Positions 39,612 through 64,000 of a DNA stretch of 64,000 bases are shown here, in pieces. Origin of the DNA: Eubacteriales bacterium (GTDB lineage Bacteria > Bacillota > Clostridia > Oscillospirales > CAG-272); contig JAZUQQ010000044.1 of assembly GCA_045605765.1 (NCBI GenBank), positions 12,466 to 76,465 on the forward strand, read 5' to 3'. The position numbers and the translations under genes are program-made. The notes beneath the pieces were generated by a model that saw only the letters and a program-made list of their open reading frames with translations, made no database searches and was not told where the DNA came from. The first letter of the stretch is position 1. Each line of letters begins with the position of its first letter.

Positions 39612-39656
39612 TTTATTTTTCCTTTCATTTGGGGAATTATTTACTTGCTTTTACCC

Positions 39657-40040
39657 GAAACCGAGCCTGTAAGCCGGGTTCTGTCGGAGTCGGCGGGACT
39701 CTGCCGACCCTACACTGTCATCTATCTTGTCCGTACGTTGCCGTACGGCTCTGCGCCGCCCGAAAAAACACGCCGTGCAAGCGCCGCCGCAAGCGGCGAT
39801 CTTCGGGTGTTGCACCGGATAGGGTTTACATTGACGCACAAAGTTACCAGTGTGCCGGTGAGCTCTTACCTCGCCTTTCCATCCTTGCCCTCTCAAAAAG
39901 AGAAGGCGGTTTATTTCTGTTGCACTTTCCCTGAGGTCACCCTCGGCGGACGTTATCCGTTATCCCGCACTACGGTGCCCGGACTTTCCTCACGGTAATA
40001 CCTTACGGCGACATACCGCGCGACAGCACAGCTCGGTTTC
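39657..40040 (-). ncRNA. rnpB: RNase P RNA, bacterial type A
   Basis: Minus strand GAGGAAAGTCCGGGC, GGAAAGTGCAACAGAA and ACAGAACCCGGCTTAC conserved regions; P1 GAAACCGAGC/GCTCGGTTTC; TTGACA-17-TATAAT promoter at 40077-40049. Confidence 0.96.
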
Positions 40041-56652: not shown

Positions 56653-57279
56653 ATGAAATACAGCATAGTTACTATAAGCCGCGAGTTCGGAAGCGGAGGA
56701 CGCACGATAGGTCGTCTGGTTGCCCAAAAGCTCGGCATTCCCTTCTACGATAGGGATCTTGTCAACAAGGTCGCTCTTGAAACAGGCTTTACTCACGAGT
56801 ATATTGCAGATGCAGGGGAATATGCTCCCGTAAAGAACAAATTTGCATATGCGCTCTCGCTCGGACACAGTAATCATATGCACGGGCACACCACCCCCGC
56901 GGATTATATATGGGCGACACAAAGCCGTGTCATAAAGTCGCTTGCCGATCAGGGTCCGTGCGTGATCGTTGGACGTTGTGCCGACTATATTCTCAGAGAC
57001 CGCACAGATGTCCTTCACGTATTTATCCACGCTCCCAAAGAGGCAAGAGCCGAAAGAATAGTCCGTATTTATGGGGAAAATTCCAGCAAACCCCTAAAAC
57101 GCCTCGACGAAAAGGACAAAAAGCGCAAGGTACACTACAACCATTTCACAGGTCGCGAGTGGGGTATGTCTCAAAATTACAACCTGAGTCTGGACAGCGA
57201 AATCGTTGGTGTGGAAAAATGTGCCAATATTATCGCGGATATAATGGTCAATAACGCCGCGGACGGCGTAGTAAGTTAA
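56653..57279 (+). CDS. Cytidylate kinase-like family protein
   Basis: ITISREFGSGG-type P-loop, VIVGRCADY, D.KR; TTGACA-17-TATAAT promoter at 56589-56617. Confidence 0.88.
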   Translation: MKYSIVTISREFGSGGRTIGRLVAQKLGIPFYDRDLVNKVALETGFTHEYIADAGEYAPVKNKFAYALSLGHSNHMHGHTTPADYIWATQSRVIKSLADQGPCVIVGRCADYILRDRTDVLHVFIHAPKEARAERIVRIYGENSSKPLKRLDEKDKKRKVHYNHFTGREWGMSQNYNLSLDSEIVGVEKCANIIADIMVNNAADGVVS

Positions 57280-57288
57280 TGATGTTAG

Positions 57289-57322
57289 AATACCTCGCAG
57301 ATAACTCTGCGAGGTATTTTTT
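57289..57322 (+). terminator. Intrinsic terminator
   Basis: AATACCTCGCAGA-taac-TCTGCGAGGTATTTTTT. Confidence 0.85.
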
Positions 57323-57376
57323 GTACAGCATTTTGCAAAAAAGATAAAAAACTCATACAAAAAATCGCAACGACCC

Positions 57377-57405
57377 TTGACATTGTCGATTCTCTGTGGT
57401 ATTAT
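57377..57405 (+). promoter_or_regulatory. SigA promoter driving the tRNA-Ser locus
   Basis: TTGACA-17 nt-TATTAT with TGn extension, 30 nt before first tRNA half. Confidence 0.75.
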
Positions 57406-57434
57406 AATAGCGTTGCGAACGCAAAACCGAACAC

Positions 57435-57473
57435 GAAGGTTATCGAAGCGGTCATAACGAGGCGGTCTTGAAA
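57435..57473 (+). repeat. tRNA-Ser(UGA) 5' half, degenerate copy 1
   Basis: GAAGGTTATCGAAGCGGTCATAACGAGGCGGTCTTGAAA; ends at anticodon loop. Confidence 0.9.
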
Positions 57474-57630
57474 TTTCAGTCTGCCGCGCGATGATGCAAG
57501 ACGGCGACCTCCGAAAGAGGTTCAAAACGCGCCGTTTTTCAGACGGTAAAATACTTGCCCGAAATGATCTCTATCGAGAATTCTAAAGGCGAGAAAAAAT
57601 ACAGAAAAGGCACAATTAAATAGTCAACAC

Positions 57631-57671
57631 GGAGGGTTATCGAAGTGGTCATAACGAGGCGGTCTTGAAAA
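57631..57671 (+). repeat. tRNA-Ser(UGA) 5' half, copy 2
   Basis: GGAGGGTTATCGAAGTGGTCATAACGAGGCGGTCTTGAAAA; one mismatch to intact tRNA; ends just past anticodon loop. Confidence 0.92.
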
Positions 57672-57821
57672 TTTGCGAGCATATCGGTCGCAAAAACGCA
57701 AAAAAGCCTTGTAAACACTGACTTTTCGGGCACTCCGAAAGCAGCCGAAAACAGCATTTCTAAAAATATTTCTAAAAAAATTGAATATCCGATGATATCT
57801 GCCTGACGGCAGTTCATATAC

Positions 57822-57910
57822 GGAGGGATATCGAAGTGGTCATAACGAGGCGGTCTTGAAAACCGTTTGGGCACCCGCCCACAAGGGTTCGAATCCCTTT
57901 CCCTCCGCCA
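57822..57910 (+). tRNA. tRNA-Ser (anticodon TGA)
   Basis: Acceptor GGAGGGA/TCCCTCC, anticodon arm GCGGT-CTTGAAA-ACCGT, long variable arm TGGGC-accc-GCCCA, GGTTCGAATCC, discriminator G, encoded CCA. Confidence 0.95.
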
Positions 57911-58410
57911 TAAAAAGCCTTGAAAACACTACGTTTTTGAGGCTTTTCTCTTTTTACCGCTTCCCGAATTTGAGCGTATTTCGCTTAATTTCTCGCATTT
58001 TTCTCGCAACTTTCATTCAAATTAAAAATCCCGAAAACCCTTGCTACATAAGGTTTTTCGGGACTTTGACTTTAGACATTGTTTTAGAAATCGTCTTCGT
58101 TTGTGTAGCTTATTTCAAGTTAGGAGCTTAAATTGAAATAACAACACGAAATTTTGATGCCTTATTTCAATTTCGTAGCTGAACCTAAAACAACTCGCTA
58201 CATAGATCAAGATAACAAGAGTCAATTTGATAAACTCTCACTCTTTATCAGAGTTTTATTTGATTAACAAAGATCTATATTGGATAAAATAATTTCACAT
58301 TTGAATGCAAATAATCAATTATTGTCGAAAATAATTGATAGTATACTTATAATAATTCTTGACAAAAATTAATTTTTGTGCTATAATGCTTACAAAAGGA
58401 GGGCTTTAAT

Positions 58411-59859
58411 ATGGCTATTACTTCAAAAGACGGCATCTTGAAGGTATTAACCGCCTATAATCCGTGGTGGAAAACCGGTGTTGTAAACCCAAAGATGACA
58501 AAAACCTATAAAAGATTTGCTTTTCATGAAGCAATGAAGCGCTTAAATGAACCCAGCATTCGTCGTACTGTTGTGCTAACGGGAACACGAAGAGTCGGAA
58601 AAACTACAATTCAATATCAGATGATCGATGCTTTGCTGAAAGAAGGAGTATCTCCGCAGAAAATTGTTTTCATTTCTATGGATCATCCCATGCTTAAATT
58701 GAGTCAGTTTCAGGAAGTTTTAGAGTGTTATCACGAAAACATATATGCCGACCAAGATGTTTACTATTTCTTTGATGAAATACAGTATGCTTCCGATTGG
58801 GATCGTTGGCTTAAGATCATATATGACAATCAGCCAGACACCCGAGTTGTCGCAACAGGATCGGCAAGTCCTGCCCTGATGAAGGGTAGTCGCGAAAGCG
58901 GTGCAGGTCGTTGGTCTGTTATTCAAGTACCAACCTTGTCCTTCTATGAATATTGTGAACTGCTTGAACTTGACAGACCCGATATTCCAGAAGATCTCAA
59001 AGCTACTGATCTGTTGCACAAAACTCAGATTGAGCGCACTCAGATTATGATGCAACTTTCAAAGGTTCAGAATCATTTTATGAGATACCTGCAAGTAGGT
59101 GGATTTCCTGAACTTGCACTTGCTGATAATGATTTGATGGCTCAGCAAATCATGAGAGAAGACGTTGTGGACAAGGTATTAAAGCGCGATTTGCCATCCC
59201 TTTATAACATTCGAAATGCAACAGAGCTTGAACGTATCTTCTTGTATTTATGTAATGTATCGTCAGAAATCATCTCTATTGATGCTATTACAAAAGAATT
59301 GAATGGAGTATCACGTACTACCGTAGAAAACTATATTCAATACTTGGAGAGTGCGAATCTGATATATCAAAGTTGGCCTGTAGATATGGCAGGTAAGAAA
59401 ATATTGAAGGCAAGACCTAAAGTTTATATTGCAGATGCGGCCATTCGCAACGCTGTATTGATGGATGAAACAATCATGACTGATCCTGTCGGTATGGGTA
59501 AGGTTGTAGAAACTGCAGTATACAAGCATGTTACGGCATTCTATTATAAGTTTGCAACCTCTGTTGGATATTTCCGAGGCGGAAAGAAGAACAAGGAAAT
59601 CGATGTCGTAGTGGATTATCCGAAGATTAAAAATATTCTAATTGAGGTGAAATATCGCGAGGGAGCTCCGATTGCCGATGATGATGCAATTATTGAATTT
59701 TGTGACGAGGCTTCCGCTGCAATCATTATCACTAAAACACCTAACGATTTTGGTGTACACAACACTCCCAGTGGTAGAGAATTATTAAGGATCCCTGCGT
59801 TTGCATTTCTTTACTTATTAGGTAATGCAGAAAAGCATGGATATCATGGAATAGAGTGA
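58411..59859 (+). CDS. AAA+ ATPase (AAA_14/DUF4143-type) with C-terminal PD-(D/E)XK-like motif
   Basis: NPWW, GTRRVGKT, FFDEIQ, ATGS, GGFP, KVYIAD, EIDVV...IEVKY; own TTGACA-17-TATAAT promoter at 58359-58387. Confidence 0.88.
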   Translation: MAITSKDGILKVLTAYNPWWKTGVVNPKMTKTYKRFAFHEAMKRLNEPSIRRTVVLTGTRRVGKTTIQYQMIDALLKEGVSPQKIVFISMDHPMLKLSQFQEVLECYHENIYADQDVYYFFDEIQYASDWDRWLKIIYDNQPDTRVVATGSASPALMKGSRESGAGRWSVIQVPTLSFYEYCELLELDRPDIPEDLKATDLLHKTQIERTQIMMQLSKVQNHFMRYLQVGGFPELALADNDLMAQQIMREDVVDKVLKRDLPSLYNIRNATELERIFLYLCNVSSEIISIDAITKELNGVSRTTVENYIQYLESANLIYQSWPVDMAGKKILKARPKVYIADAAIRNAVLMDETIMTDPVGMGKVVETAVYKHVTAFYYKFATSVGYFRGGKKNKEIDVVVDYPKIKNILIEVKYREGAPIADDDAIIEFCDEASAAIIITKTPNDFGVHNTPSGRELLRIPAFAFLYLLGNAEKHGYHGIE

Positions 59860-59865
59860 TGCTTA

Positions 59866-59902
59866 AAAACACAGCCCCACCGCAATGGTGAGGCTGTGTT
59901 TT
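59866..59902. terminator. Bidirectional intrinsic terminator
   Basis: AAAACACAGCC-CCACC gcaat GGTG-AGGCTGTGTTTT between convergent genes. Confidence 0.8.
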
Positions 59903-59905
59903 GCT

Positions 59906-60490
59906 TTACTCCTTCTCCACAAAGAGCAGGATGGTATTCATATGCCACGTCGACTTATGGACAATCTCGAATGCAAAGTCGCCGACGAGAAATTCCACGA
60001 GTGCGCTCTTGGGCACGATATACTTTCCGCTGATCTGAACAGCGAATATCCGCTTCTGCTGAATATATGCGAGTACCGTGCTTTTGGCGTACCCCATAAT
60101 GTCAGCCGCTTTATCTGCGGTGAATGAGTCGGGAAAGTACCGAAGCCGCTTCTCAACGTGGTCTCTGAATGCATCCTTGCACTCGTCCGCGATGGTAACG
60201 TAGCACTCGGATATTCTCACGGTATCCACCGGATGATGATTGTGGATCACCACCGTTTGCTTGGTCGGCTTGGCGTTGAAGATCCCAATGGGAATCTCCT
60301 TGCGCCGTTCCGATCGTTTCTTTTGCAGATAGGCTTCCACATCCTCAAGCCTTATGGCATATCGGTGTGTCTTGGTTGGACGGATTCTGCACGGAATAAT
60401 TCCGTTCTGCAGCATCCACGCCGCTTTCCGTTTGCTGATATGAAGCATCTTGTAGAGCTGTTCCAAGGACATTTCTCCCTCTTTCAGCAT
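59906..60490 (-). CDS. Protein with two excisionase-like (HTH_17) domains
   Basis: MSLEQLYKMLHISKR...GIIPC and YFPDSFTADKAADIMG...FAVQISGKYIVPKSAL; coupled to integrase stop. Confidence 0.75.
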   Translation of the reverse strand: MLKEGEMSLEQLYKMLHISKRKAAWMLQNGIIPCRIRPTKTHRYAIRLEDVEAYLQKKRSERRKEIPIGIFNAKPTKQTVVIHNHHPVDTVRISECYVTIADECKDAFRDHVEKRLRYFPDSFTADKAADIMGYAKSTVLAYIQQKRIFAVQISGKYIVPKSALVEFLVGDFAFEIVHKSTWHMNTILLFVEKE

Positions 60491-60491
60491 A

Positions 60492-61707
60492 TCAGCTCAC
60501 CTCTCCTTCGTCATCGTCGGCAAGGAGCTTGCCGAGCTTCATACCTGCCTCACCCGTTGCGTTGGCATCGAGGTGTGAATAAATGTCGGCTGTTGTACTC
60601 ATGTTGCTGTGGCCAAGGTATCTCTGAATGACTTTCATATTCACGTCCAGCGAGACCAGAAGCGATGCACAGGTGTGTCGGAGGTCGTGGAATCGGATGT
60701 CTCTCAGGCCGTTCTGTCGGAGAAGCGTTGGGAAGTGCGCCGTGATATAACTCGGCTTGATCAGCTCACCGAGGGGATTGACGCAGACCATGTCCGCATA
60801 TTTTTTGCTGTAGGACTTGCGGAACTGCTTGCGGTAAAGCTCCTGACGCTCTCGGTGTTCAAGGAGGATTTCCTTGACCTCGGGAATCATTTTGAAGCTT
60901 CTGCGCGAGCTTTCGGTCTTCATCTCATCGCTGATTACCTGCACCATCTTACCGTCACGGACGACTTCCAGCACCTTTTGTCCTATGAATATCTTATCGT
61001 TTTCAAAGTCGATGTTACTCCATGACAGTCCGAGGGCTTCGCTACGGCGCAGACCGCAGTAGACGGCGAGTACGATGGGAATATAGATGACGTCCTCCTT
61101 GGCTTTTTCAAGAAGCACCTTGACCTCGTCCACCGAGTAGAACGCGCCGACAAACTTTTTTCACCTGCGGACGCTCCACTCTGTCCATGGGATTATACTC
61201 AAGGATCTCCTGTCGGATGGCATACTCGAAGGCGGTGTGAAGCAGATTGTGATAGTGAAGCACCGTCTGCTCGCTGTCGCCGTCCTCACGCAGGTAATCG
61301 TAGAAGCCGTGTATCAGCCTCGGCTTGCAATCAGCAAGGGTGATCTTTGTGTCGAAGTATTTCTTCATCTTTCCGTTGACTCGGCTCTTGTAACCGTAAT
61401 ATGTTGACTCTTGGATCTTGTGCTTATGAACCTTGTCGAGCCAGTCGTTAAGGAATTCCAGAAGAGGATATTGTGTGGGATCGTCGTAGCCGTCGAGATA
61501 ACGCTTGTACTGCGCTTCGAATTGATTCTTCGCCTCTCGCTCGGCTTTGTTGATAACCGACTTGGGAGAGCCCGAAGGCACGCCCATGCCCACCCATTTG
61601 GTTTTGTGTTTTTGCGTGATGGGGTCCTTGTAGCTGACCACCAGATACAGCATGCCGCGCTTTTCTTGAACGCTGCCCGAGATGTCTTTATCGAGTTTCT
61701 TTGCCAT
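60492..61707 (-). pseudogene. Tyrosine integrase, frameshifted by one extra A in an A6 run (61156-61161)
   Basis: N-half (arm-binding and SAM-like, NPMDRVERP) and C-half (GLRRSE, FHDLRHT, LGHS, TADIYSH) join as QVKKFVGAFYSVDEV, 404 aa, if one A is removed. Confidence 0.85.
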
Positions 61708-61708
61708 A

Positions 61709-62034
61709 TCAGCTTACCTCCTTTTGATTTTTGGCAACACAAACAATATCACAAGGAGTAGCCAAAGTCCAGTGCTGTGGGTTCGAAGTTACATTTACAA
61801 CACAATTTTCTCCATTGAGTTTTCTTTCACCTCGAACGTATTCCATCAAGGATTTTTTCGAAACTCGATATTCTCGCCCGACTTTTTTGCATAAAACTTT
61901 CCGTCGTGAATCAATTTTGAGGTAAGCTTGGTGCTGACATTCAAATATTCTGCGGCTTGTGCGAGTGTCATAGCGTCGGGATAACGGCGAGCGTCACCGC
62001 GCATGGGCTGATGAAAAGTACAATTTGCGTTCAT
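61709..62034 (-). CDS. Excisionase-like HTH protein needing a -1 shift at A_AAA_AAG (61888-61882)
   Basis: GGAGG RBS; YPDAMTLAQAAEYLNVS; -1 frame continues KVGREYRVSKKSLMEYV and stops 1 nt before integrase ATG (108 aa). Confidence 0.75.
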
Positions 62035-62050
62035 TCCGATACCTCCTTCA

Positions 62051-62458
62051 TTACGACTGCCATCTGACAGCTTCATCAAAACTGATAATGCCATTGATCT
62101 TTTTGACCTCATTGACACAGATACCGCGCACTCTTTCAAGTGTGGCCTGATCAATTTGCGTGTTCGCCGCGACGATATTTTGAAGAACCGTCAGCTCCAC
62201 GGCGATCTTAAAGAGCAACGTACCCTGCTTTCTTGTGAAGGGATCCATCACCTTCGTCATGGAATCAGCGACCGCGTCGGGCAAAAATGACGTATCGTTT
62301 TGATTGGAAAGGAATCCGGAATAGAATTCGATCGCTTCCGCAATGAACTCACTGGTGCCGCAATTTCTTTTCTTTGCGAAGTCGACTGCCTTATCGATCG
62401 TGGACTGGTGGGTGTAGAGAGAAAATCTCTGCTTAGATTCTTTATTATCAATTTTCAT
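62051..62458 (-). CDS. RHH-like DNA-binding protein resembling relaxosome accessory proteins of Firmicute mobile elements
   Basis: RFSLY...SEFIAEAIEFYSGFL, LFKIAVEL, RGICVNEVKKINGIISF; GAGG RBS. Confidence 0.6.
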   Translation of the reverse strand: MKIDNKESKQRFSLYTHQSTIDKAVDFAKKRNCGTSEFIAEAIEFYSGFLSNQNDTSFLPDAVADSMTKVMDPFTRKQGTLLFKIAVELTVLQNIVAANTQIDQATLERVRGICVNEVKKINGIISFDEAVRWQS

Positions 62459-62926
62459 GTTAATTACCTCGTTAAATTCGATTATATGGTTGAATTTCGG
62501 TGATCACACAATCCTTGAGCGCGAAAAAAGCCCGGCCGTTCCGTGATTTTTGCGTTTTTTGAGCGCACAATCACACAACCGAACCAAATTGTCACACACC
62601 AAACCGCGCACAACACAATTTGGACATCTCCCGAAAGCTCGCAAAAGCTCGGTTTATCTTGCAAATCCTCGGTCGGCGTTGCCGTCCGATGTGTGTAGGC
62701 GAAAGCCGGCGGCATACGCCTTTAACCTGCTTTCCAATCGAAAACCGAAATCTCGATTTTCGACTCCGCGATCTGTGTGATACTAACAATTCGAAAAAAT
62801 CGGAGTGACAGCGTGACAAGTGAAATGGTTCACGTATTTGTCACACGTTAGTGGCTTGGAAATATAGAAAATATCCAGCCGTGGTAGCCTTTTTGAGCCC
62901 TGTCATATTGTCACACGCTTTGAATT

Positions 62927-64000
62927 TTACTCACCGTATATATTGTTTACCTCTGATTTTTTGACAAGCATAACGTGACGACGCACGTTACCTTTGAACC
63001 GTTTTAAGAAAGAATTCTTACCGTTGCGTTGTTCAACGATTCCTTCTTCGACAAGAGCTTTCGATAATGCCTGAAGAGAGATCGTAAAGTTTACGTTCTG
63101 CCCCTCGCAGAATTTCATTACTCGTCTGTACGATTCATCGAAAAATATTTCATAATATTCTTCGCTCTCGTAGCCCACGCAACCTGACATGGGATCTCCA
63201 GACGCATTCGACCGCATCAGCCACACCTCACCGCACTCGATCATCGCCATAAGCTTGCGGACAAATAAGTGCGTCGGTCTGTCTTGCTCGGTATAATTTC
63301 CTTGTTCTTCTGCTAATTTGAGAATGATTTTTTCGAATTCCTCACGGTAGATTTCGAGGTCTACGCTTGGAAAGCAGAAGGAAAGAAATCGAATACAGTA
63401 GTCGAACCCGATGCGAAAGCACGCCACGGTGTCTGCCACTCTTGCATGAACCTTGCTCCCAATCTGCTCGCGGCATTGCAAGCGGTATCGGTCATAGGTA
63501 CGTTGAAGGTCTTGGACAAACGCCTTTTCGTTCGTAAGGACCGTATCGGCAAGCCAATCGGTATAGGCCGAAAGGCATCGTCGGAACACACCGTCGCTTG
63601 CGAATTTTTGAACGTCAGAAAACAATTTCAGGTCAAGACAATTCGGATTCATTTCCAGAAAGAAGAGTCTTGCCGTGGTAGATTCTCCGATGTTCGGTGT
63701 GCTTTCAGCGGTGATGATGGCGTTGCCCCTCGGAGGGGAAGCATCCATCAGTTGCGCTTGGCTGTTCATTCTGCTTCGGCCTGCTCGGTCACCGTAGCCT
63801 CGACAGATCACCTGCATGACCGAGCGCATGGTCGCTTCATCTCCTTTTGTGGAGGGATGATAATCGTCCACGCAGGTCAGCACGTCCTTCAGCGCGTTGC
63901 TGTTCTCGATGATACTGTTGGCAGTATCCCGAAAGGACATGGGCATATCCGTTGAGGAAAAGTTGCCGAAGAAGGACAGAAGGAAGGCTGCGTATGAGGT
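62927..64000 (-). CDS. C-terminal part of helicase-type replication protein (DUF927/primase-associated), 5' end outside window
   Basis: SFRDTANS, CVDDY (Walker B-like), GDRAGRSR, IITAE, STTAR; followed by GTGACA/TGTCAC repeats. Confidence 0.7.
   Translation of the reverse strand, partial: TSYAAFLLSFFGNFSSTDMPMSFRDTANSIIENSNALKDVLTCVDDYHPSTKGDEATMRSVMQVICRGYGDRAGRSRMNSQAQLMDASPPRGNAIITAESTPNIGESTTARLFFLEMNPNCLDLKLFSDVQKFASDGVFRRCLSAYTDWLADTVLTNEKAFVQDLQRTYDRYRLQCREQIGSKVHARVADTVACFRIGFDYCIRFLSFCFPSVDLEIYREEFEKIILKLAEEQGNYTEQDRPTHLFVRKLMAMIECGEVWLMRSNASGDPMSGCVGYESEEYYEIFFDESYRRVMKFCEGQNVNFTISLQALSKALVEEGIVEQRNGKNSFLKRFKGNVRRHVMLVKKSEVNNIYGE

Follow-up and report, generated by a model that had tools for sequence, protein, structure and literature searches.

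The stretch of DNA analysed here, 64,000 nucleotides (nt) of contig JAZUQQ010000044.1 (C44) of assembly GCA_045605765.1 and hereafter called the window, contains a single transfer RNA (tRNA) gene, a tRNA-Ser(TGA) at 57822-57910 that was recovered by ARAGORN and Rfam (56.7 bits) and is the genome's only gene for this isoacceptor. Between this gene and its promoter lie two partial copies of it, each of which breaks off at the anticodon loop and gives way to a spacer. Our findings indicate that this array is most probably a stack of attL-type left-end junctions from the serial integration of islands that belong to one tyrosine-integrase clade and that, from their sequences, appear to bring a complete tRNA gene with them. 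Genomes, contigs and the loci or contigs compared are labelled G, C and L, respectively; the window genome is G000, and C32 and C19 are further contigs of it. The array comprises the following features.

57377..57405, plus strand: promoter of the host sigma-70 type, TTGACA-17-TATTAT with a TG extension, scoring 11/12 and conserved in the genus upstream of tRNA-Ser(TGA)
57410..57422, plus strand: leader hairpin with a 5-bp stem in the interval between promoter and half 1, from sequence reading and folding
57435..57473, plus strand: orphan 5' half 1, read as that of the host's original tRNA-Ser(TGA), with the genus-type acceptor GGAAGGA and loop CTTGAAA, decayed; its partner is the 3' half on C32
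57474..57630, plus strand: spacer 1, a probable fossil P' arm of an older island, from its repeats and an other-sample contig over 57450-57658
57631..57671, plus strand: orphan 5' half 2, with acceptor GGAGGGT and terminal core CTTGAAAA, probably from an earlier island-borne tRNA, from repeats and stem comparison
57672..57821, plus strand: spacer 2, a predicted P' arm, homologous over its full length to the island spacers of L067-L085, L131 and L132
57822..57910, plus strand: intact tRNA-Ser(TGA), acceptor GGAGGGA/TCCCTCC, anticodon loop 57855-57861, read as island-borne
57913..57947, plus strand: intrinsic terminator 3' of the tRNA

A repeat search resolved the halves and the start of the tRNA into a 43-nt family of three copies, at 57432-57474 (86% identity), 57629-57671 (the reference) and 57820-57862 (98%), and the likeness of the halves to the tRNA is not due to chance because their short-BLAST E-values range from 1e-10 to 1e-17. 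The preliminary description of this DNA had proposed the same layout of one promoter, two half-tRNAs and an intact tRNA, which the repeat search, ARAGORN/Rfam and the promoter score bear out; of the periods it gave, 196 and 191 bp, the second stands and the first is measured as 197. It was also right that both halves cease at the anticodon loop and that the spacers differ from each other. Both halves read CTTGAAA(A) and then diverge, half 1 ending in CTTGAAA before TTTCAG and half 2 in CTTGAAAA before TTTGCG, with identity to the tRNA ceasing at the loop or one base past it, and spacers 1 and 2 are nearly unrelated, having just short weak matches in common. The promoter-proximal half 1 is the most decayed (86% identity, first base lost, position 7 altered), which agrees with the polar, chronological order suggested earlier. 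A similar promoter and leader stand upstream of tRNA-Ser in G002, G004, G005 and G006, and the terminator at 57913-57947 is the sole terminator-like site of the region. From 57405 to the tRNA there is no second promoter site of at least 10/12, and transcription of the tRNA therefore probably starts at the host promoter and runs through the array.

The spacers carry short repeats that may serve as binding sites of an integrase. In spacer 2 these are direct repeats ATTTCTAA at 57756-57763 and 57768-57775, which are putative arm-type sites, and spacer 1 holds a degenerate pair of TTCTAA-like sites at ~57567-57587. An intact tRNA of the half-2 lineage (GGAGGGT/ACCCTCC) occurs in the metagenome contig L178. 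Logan contigs from other samples bridge both types of junction, half 1-spacer 1-half 2 (198 nt, 57450-57658) and half 2-spacer 2-tRNA (201 nt, 57647-57847), and the genome contig L132 holds a half, a spacer 2-like sequence and a half in matching order; for these reasons the array does not stem from an error in this assembly, a concern that the preliminary description had itself raised. The largest share of sampled words in any public run was 0.38 and the contigs were short; the host promoter region, 57200-57419, was uncovered in all four runs, a gap that carries no weight either way; Logan joints with sides of 21-29 letters inside the repeated halves were not used.

Downstream of the tRNA lies an island whose far end holds what appears to be the missing part of half 1. 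The last 141 nt of C44 are the first 141 nt of C32, and through this join the distance from the half-2 core to C32:10161 is ~20.8 kb, the portion past the window consisting of 4.4 kb more of C44 and then ~10 kb of C32. This stretch has a tyrosine recombinase inside the element, a crossover site in the anticodon loop and a displaced target fragment in the same orientation at its far end. There, a distal arm (C32:9954-10160) with two direct and two inverted TTTCTAA/TTAGAAA sites at C32:9975-10019 is followed by the core CTTGAAAA and an orphan tRNA-Ser(TGA) 3' half (C32:10161-10213) with the acceptor strand TCCTTCC, which is decayed by changes in the T loop and T stem and whose lineage is represented by the intact gene of congeneric species. 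TCCTTCC pairs with GAAGG of half 1; at position 4-69 the orphans have an A-T pair where the intact tRNA has G-C. Because the acceptor strands match and 4-69 pairs A-T, half 1 and the C32 fragment are read as one original host gene that was broken in two and whose parts are now separated by ~21 kb. That distal 3' halves start at the matching core upholds the earlier proposal that the halves stem from site-specific recombination in the anticodon loop. Spacer 1 also shares sequence with this arm, 57486-57503 being an inverted copy (16/18) of C32:10111-10128. We prefer the reading in which spacer 2 and the intact tRNA came with the resident island, because spacer 2 is homologous to the P' arms of tRNA-carrying islands and has a 39-43-nt inverted segment in common with the C32 arm. 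The integrase next to the tRNA is split over two frames and the distal 3' half has decayed; the island now looks fixed.

Four independent lines of sequence evidence place the spacer and the tRNA on the element side of the core. In G042, the orphan 5' half and an orphan 3' half located 26 kb downstream pair at 12/12 positions of the acceptor and anticodon stems, and the orphan halves in G004 do the same, with three compensated positions, as in G042. Crosswise pairing of these halves with the intact tRNA that lies between them gives 3 non-pairs, or 2 non-pairs and a G-U. The whole tRNA in both genomes is therefore foreign, as the orphans match one another rather than the intact gene. L128, L131 and L132 agree at 16-20/20 positions per scanned interval (mostly 18-20) from the half to +1340, which takes in spacer, tRNA and integrase; they are unrelated upstream, and the halves that precede the shared part differ in acceptor and D-arm bases. 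The virome contig L173 consists of an arm with two repeats, the core CTCGAAAT without a preceding 5' half, a spacer of ~150 nt with two repeats of the same consensus as in the arm, a complete tRNA-Ser(CGA) and, 73 nt on, a convergent integrase. We take L173 to be the joined (attP-type) form of such an island, in which both sides of the core are element DNA. Finally, the repeats of spacer and distal arm co-vary from island to island: TTTCTAA is found in spacer 2 and C32, TTCTCGCA in the G004 spacer and G004:C40, and GTTCT(A/C)(T/C)CC in both arm and spacer of L173. In none of G042, G004 and L173 does the attP carry a tRNA fragment only, from which a hybrid gene would be regenerated. Scans with a 30-nt stretch of spacer 2 for a free form of the window's own island type found 0 viral contigs and 3 metagenome contigs, all of them integrated or mosaic forms.

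The anatomy extends well beyond the window. Among 41 related genomes that were searched, 36 tRNA-Ser(TGA/CGA) loci were compared with themselves, and upstream 5' copies were present at 16 of the 36, including the window locus and a second locus of the window genome on C19. Over these 36 loci the unit distances are typically 187-198 nt, up to four units occur in succession (G034) and the 5' copies mostly cease at tRNA position 40-43; the crossover in G042, G043 and G041 is likewise at the anticodon loop. The tRNAs themselves differ between genomes, yet many of the halves are identical to the local tRNA. Copy number and spacers thus differ among related loci, with between 0 and 4 units, as the preliminary description had anticipated, and the spacers form families that are conserved between genera and are not the random remnants that it had considered as a refutation. 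In G020 a unit is present and no integrase of the clade lies within 7 kb downstream.

An alignment of three integrases from behind such tRNAs was used to search one genome per species, which yielded 79 loci. A convergent tRNA stands beside the integrase at 55/79 of these (Ser-CGA, Ser-TGA, one Ser-GCT, Gln-CTG, Lys-CTT and Leu), and a 5' partial copy at 41/52 loci that have at least 250 nt upstream. The distance of the copy depends on the tRNA, being ~193 nt for Ser-CGA, ~201 for Ser-TGA (up to 3 units), 166 for Gln, 73 for Lys and 167 or 214 for Leu, and the Gln, Lys and Leu copies also reach the anticodon loop and are then followed by a spacer with paired short repeats. As a control, 2/38 tRNAs of the window genome have a 5' copy, both of them tRNA-Ser; two more matches, in Gly and Phe genes of a tRNA cluster, were read as neighbouring tRNA genes. 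The anatomy is accordingly best described as a property of the integrase clade and not of tRNA-Ser. The window integrase has no close relative among the 79 loci, the best matches reaching 52-56% identity in the catalytic part. In a complete F. prausnitzii genome, promoter, half, spacer, tRNA and integrase lie on one molecule with a 59-nt 3' part (tRNA positions 33-91, 100% identity) 84.7 kb downstream, behind an arm. The repeats of this distal arm differ from those of the spacer, and the F. prausnitzii spacer is read as the scar of an earlier, different island.

We propose that crossover of these islands takes place within the anticodon loop of their tRNA target and that the P' side of each would comprise an arm of ~150 nt with arm-type repeats, a complete tRNA, genes of the excisionase and integrase type, and cargo. 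Upon integration, the host 5' half would remain under the host promoter, the island arm and whole tRNA would land directly behind this orphaned half, and the host 3' half would be moved to the distal end of the island. The next island would need an intact anticodon arm and would therefore enter the newest tRNA, orphaning its 5' half in turn, and because each new island enters the newest gene the array would grow at its tRNA-proximal end and be polar, with the oldest half next to the promoter. Loss of an island body at a later time, perhaps by homologous deletion between repeated 3' parts, would leave a scar of half plus spacer, as may be the case in G020. In the window, spacer 1 and half 2 would be the remnant of a first island, and spacer 2, the intact tRNA and the ~20.8-kb island would be the latest arrival, or else spacer 2 would be another scar, with an ordinary island behind it. 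Islands that are composite or nested may travel as one unit, and L132 holds half 2-like, spacer 2-like and GGAGGGA-type units together. Unequal crossing-over and gene conversion probably also reshape the arrays, given the identical neighbouring spacers in G034 and the repeat in G005 that reaches 52 nt upstream of the tRNA, into the leader.

Several observations weigh against this interpretation. The join of C44 and C32 is a 141-nt assembly overlap in a metagenome-assembled genome, and the 3' partner of half 2 was found nowhere in the genome, which obliges us to assume a deletion; the joined 20.9-kb stretch holds neither this partner nor internal att remnants. The intact 5' half of the window tRNA also pairs 12/12 (one G-U) with the C32 3' half, and inverted arm-like sites lie at 58071-58091, 160-180 nt downstream of the tRNA. 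Elsewhere, many halves are identical to the local tRNA, which calls for repeated hits by like islands or for gene conversion; 11/52 loci lack any half; related integrases also reside in ordinary islands without a half (G006:C46, L082 and L076); and L173 may represent the junction of tandem copies instead of a circle. The last event in the window could accordingly have been the arrival of an ordinary island that restored the 3' half behind two older scars, an alternative with which the pairing of the intact 5' half, the arm sites downstream of the tRNA and the existence of such islands in the clade all agree.

The preliminary description had favored autonomous, gene-less elements of ~190 bp, that is, circles bearing only an attP that are mobilised in trans and that each donate one 5' half. 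The near-constant unit length of 187-201 bp in many genomes, the arm-like repeats in the spacers and the unit-bearing loci that lack a clade integrase within 7 kb downstream, such as G020, would suit this idea. Nevertheless, we regard it as very improbable. The intact tRNAs of G042 and G004 have a foreign 3' half as well, and the host 3' half sits at the far end of a large island; a donor of the 5' half alone is ruled out there because it cannot yield a foreign 3' half. The larger integrase-bearing elements with equal ends that the preliminary description suggested looking for are present, the same spacers form their left ends, and the joined form in L173 is continuous with island genes on both sides. 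Junctions of 190-bp circles were absent from the viral-contig scan (0) and from the metagenome scan (3 integrated forms). The units thus appear to be the left ends of large islands, consisting of a P' arm and the 5' half of a complete tRNA, and the donation concerns the whole tRNA, 3' half included. Improbable too is an origin of the upstream halves by tandem duplication or unequal crossing-over of the tRNA leader, unrelated to integration, next to an ordinary island that restores the 3' half. Ordinary islands do exist in the clade, and the same-spacer neighbours in G034 and the 52-nt extension in G005 could be accounted for by unequal crossing-over or gene conversion in arrays already present, but duplication leaves unexplained that the copies end at the anticodon-loop core exactly where the distal 3' halves start, and that a single array contains unlike spacers, which match the arms of different island types. 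One array can moreover mix tRNA lineages (L171, L174 and G004), and copies occur at 41/52 integrase-adjacent tRNAs of four amino-acid types against 2/38 in the control.

Retention of the array for a function of its RNA, whether as 5' tRNA halves, anticodon-arm decoys or a structured tRNA-Ser regulatory leader, seems to us highly unlikely. The only strong promoter stands upstream of the whole array, and the halves are thus probably co-transcribed; metatranscriptome contigs cover 57450-57658 and 57631-57795, where carry-over of DNA is possible. The 416-nt leader folds slightly better than its shuffles (z = -2.07), and in RNAalifold analysis of 12 homologous spacers a 5-bp hairpin at 57799-57812 (alignment columns 129-142), 9-10 nt before the mature tRNA 5' end, has compensatory changes in 5/5 pairs; host leaders beside promoters have a similar hairpin. 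The hairpin ahead of the tRNA may act in processing or stability, or as a DNA site. Against such a function, only two helices were predicted in that alignment and no other spacer helix covaries, the spacer being otherwise conserved as sequence rather than structure. No Rfam family matches the leader at E up to 10, and in the scan of 57250-58450 the tRNA alone reaches its gathering score, all else falling far below. Older halves decay (half 1, 86%, first base lost), relatives have 0 to 4 units, and spacer type tracks island type and not the tRNA. The comparisons give no sign that the halves themselves are under selection, and for the decoy or tRNA-half reading offered in the preliminary description we found nothing beyond the likely co-transcription. 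Actual use of the halves, as anticodon-arm decoys against phage or toxin nucleases that cleave tRNA-Ser or as competitors that tune tRNA folding or RNase P processing, is quite unlikely in our estimation; if true, it would be a selectable benefit of the islands of this clade beyond their cargo.

Two further RNA-level candidates were considered and rejected. A structured non-coding RNA as the principal explanation of the array was set aside on the single covarying helix among the 12 spacers. A split tRNA joined in trans was set aside on the decay of the halves and on the position of the pairing, which is not adjacent to them. The best duplex between the sequence that trails half 1 and the one that leads into the C32 3' half has -33.2 kcal/mol (shuffles -22.7 +/- 3.7; 2/300 as good); its strands are located 12-29 nt past half 1 and 33-50 nt ahead of the C32 3' half, and this complementarity is explained by the inverted arm sites.

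According to the Islander report, 2083/3919 islands have an anticodon-centred site, 3760 islands have a 3' fragment and 159 a 5' fragment, 125 tandems of at least two islands are known and candidates below 2 kb are rejected (PMC4383910). As described there, its 2-kb filter would drop a 5' fragment such as those described here and set the boundary at the intact tRNA (PMC4383910). The stacked-scar islands resemble the Islander/TIGER type with the anticodon-loop 'A' sublocation in that the integrase converges on the tRNA, crossover is in the anticodon loop, a displaced fragment lies at the distal end, arm-type repeats are present in both arms (their binding being predicted here from the repeats) and the cargo is of defence and accessory kinds. 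They differ in that the complete tRNA stands behind an arm of ~150 nt (as short as 32 nt, Lys) and in that both halves of the target are orphaned, with the 5' half 70-240 nt upstream of the new gene. Arrays and remnants of att sites are also known from the cis-mobilizable elements (CIMEs) and from the ssrA-linked island arrays of Dehalococcoides. Accretion and decayed elements are likewise the subject of papers on streptococcal ICEs and IMEs. As in island accretion and CIMEs of Firmicutes, one target is used repeatedly, copies of att are ordered and remnants lack recombination genes. However, known island arrays repeat a distal, usually 3', fragment between full islands, whereas the arrays described here are compact stacks of 5' halves with one arm each, between a promoter and a live gene and probably within the primary transcript. 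Relative to a CIME, the units possess an attL-type junction of half, core and P' arm, whereas a P arm and another complete core containing both strands of the stem are missing. The split tRNA genes of Nanoarchaeota likewise consist of separate 5' and 3' halves, with the division at the anticodon loop and a large genomic distance between the two. Unlike those, the present halves have decayed and flank an intact gene, and the complementarity of trailer and leader is modest and non-adjacent. In two reports on Archaea, a 5' tRNA fragment is described upstream of the full gene after integration (Caldiarchaeum tRNA-Thr and Pyrococcus PYG1; PMC3293823, PMC9897764). The element body, of 1.8 kb and 21.4 kb in those accounts, lies between fragment and gene, whereas only an arm lies between them here and the body is beyond the gene. 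Full-text literature searches, which did not cover supplements and are no proof of absence, returned no description of islands with a whole tRNA behind an arm and stacked 5' halves.

Our findings suggest that a widespread clade of gut-Clostridia integrases follows a strategy of whole-tRNA replacement and takeover of the host promoter, as opposed to the usual mending of the target with a fragment. Core tRNA genes would thereby be exchanged horizontally, and near-identical tRNA-Ser genes and leaders are indeed found in hosts with unrelated flanks. Once the orphan halves have decayed, as in the window, the tRNA of the island would be the sole copy and exit of the island would be costly, which provides a simple route to fixation. 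The stack of 5' halves would also constitute an ordered record of integration that could be used to count and order the turnover of islands at one locus. Programs that detect islands by matching a single displaced fragment to an intact tRNA and that drop anything below 2 kb would set the left boundary ~190 nt too far in and miss the scars.

The part of the resident island that lies in the window, and the rest of its gene content, are as follows.

58071..58110, strand not assigned: inverted copy of distal-arm C32:9954-9994 with two TTTAGA(A/C) sites (TTTCTAA inverted)
58411..59859, plus strand: AAA_14/DUF4143 ATPase, island cargo, from a Pfam-type domain match
59906..60490, minus strand: HTH_17 protein in the position of an excisionase; homologues adjoin integrases at other loci
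60492..61707, minus strand: tyrosine integrase in two overlapping frames (60492-61133, catalytic; 61108-61707, SAM-like N-terminal), converging on the tRNA
61708..64000, strand not assigned: remaining in-window part of the island

The frame at 60492-61133 matches Phage_integrase (PF00589) with 87.8 bits, and the two frames overlap by 26 nt; the split is a frameshift or an assembly error. From the tRNA, the gene order is the AAA_14/DUF4143 ATPase, HTH_17, the split integrase, an S24 LexA-like protein, DUF6809, a T5orf172/ResIII protein, an Eco57I-type methylase, a second integrase that is intact and of another subfamily (C32:4395-5408, 112 bits) and a YobI-like NTPase. The cargo of 58411-64000, the rest of C44 and C32:1-9271 resembles a defence set, in which the T5orf172 and ResIII-like protein has 967 aa, the YobI-like P-loop NTPase has 1227 aa and the S24 protein is a LexA-like repressor; open reading frames of 135, 586, 121, 113 and 101 aa have no Pfam family.

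Some further observations concern related loci. On C19 of the window genome (951-1407, L002), a tRNA-Ser(CGA) is preceded, at a distance of 368 nt, by its own orphan 5' half (tRNA positions 1-40, 97.5%), the interval holding a spacer from a different family and an extra segment of ~164 nt; the contig ends 950 nt downstream and no contig overlap was found, so an island beyond that end is out of sight. The sequence after the G042 orphan 3' half (L169, L042) is that found after the intact tRNA-Ser(TGA) in G006:C46, and a further island common to G042 and G006 probably begins there, making these tandem islands. In L041 (G002:C62), ~150-250 nt downstream of the tRNA-Ser, a fragment from the T arm to the 3' end is repeated together with a terminator and a conserved downstream motif, which looks like an old 3'-side scar at the genus-ancestral locus. 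Upstream of the arrays in L067/L045, L069, L023 and L178, and at ~1308-1500 of L020, a tRNA-Ser 5' piece breaks off within the D loop (position 18); a GC-rich insert of ~90-115 nt that begins with GGGACG comes next, and tRNA-like sequence then returns. These inserts have no Rfam match, and the pieces may represent a second crossover sublocation or another element. Apart from the array, the minus strand of the window at 39654-40039 encodes a full-length bacterial RNase P RNA of class A (245.7 bits).

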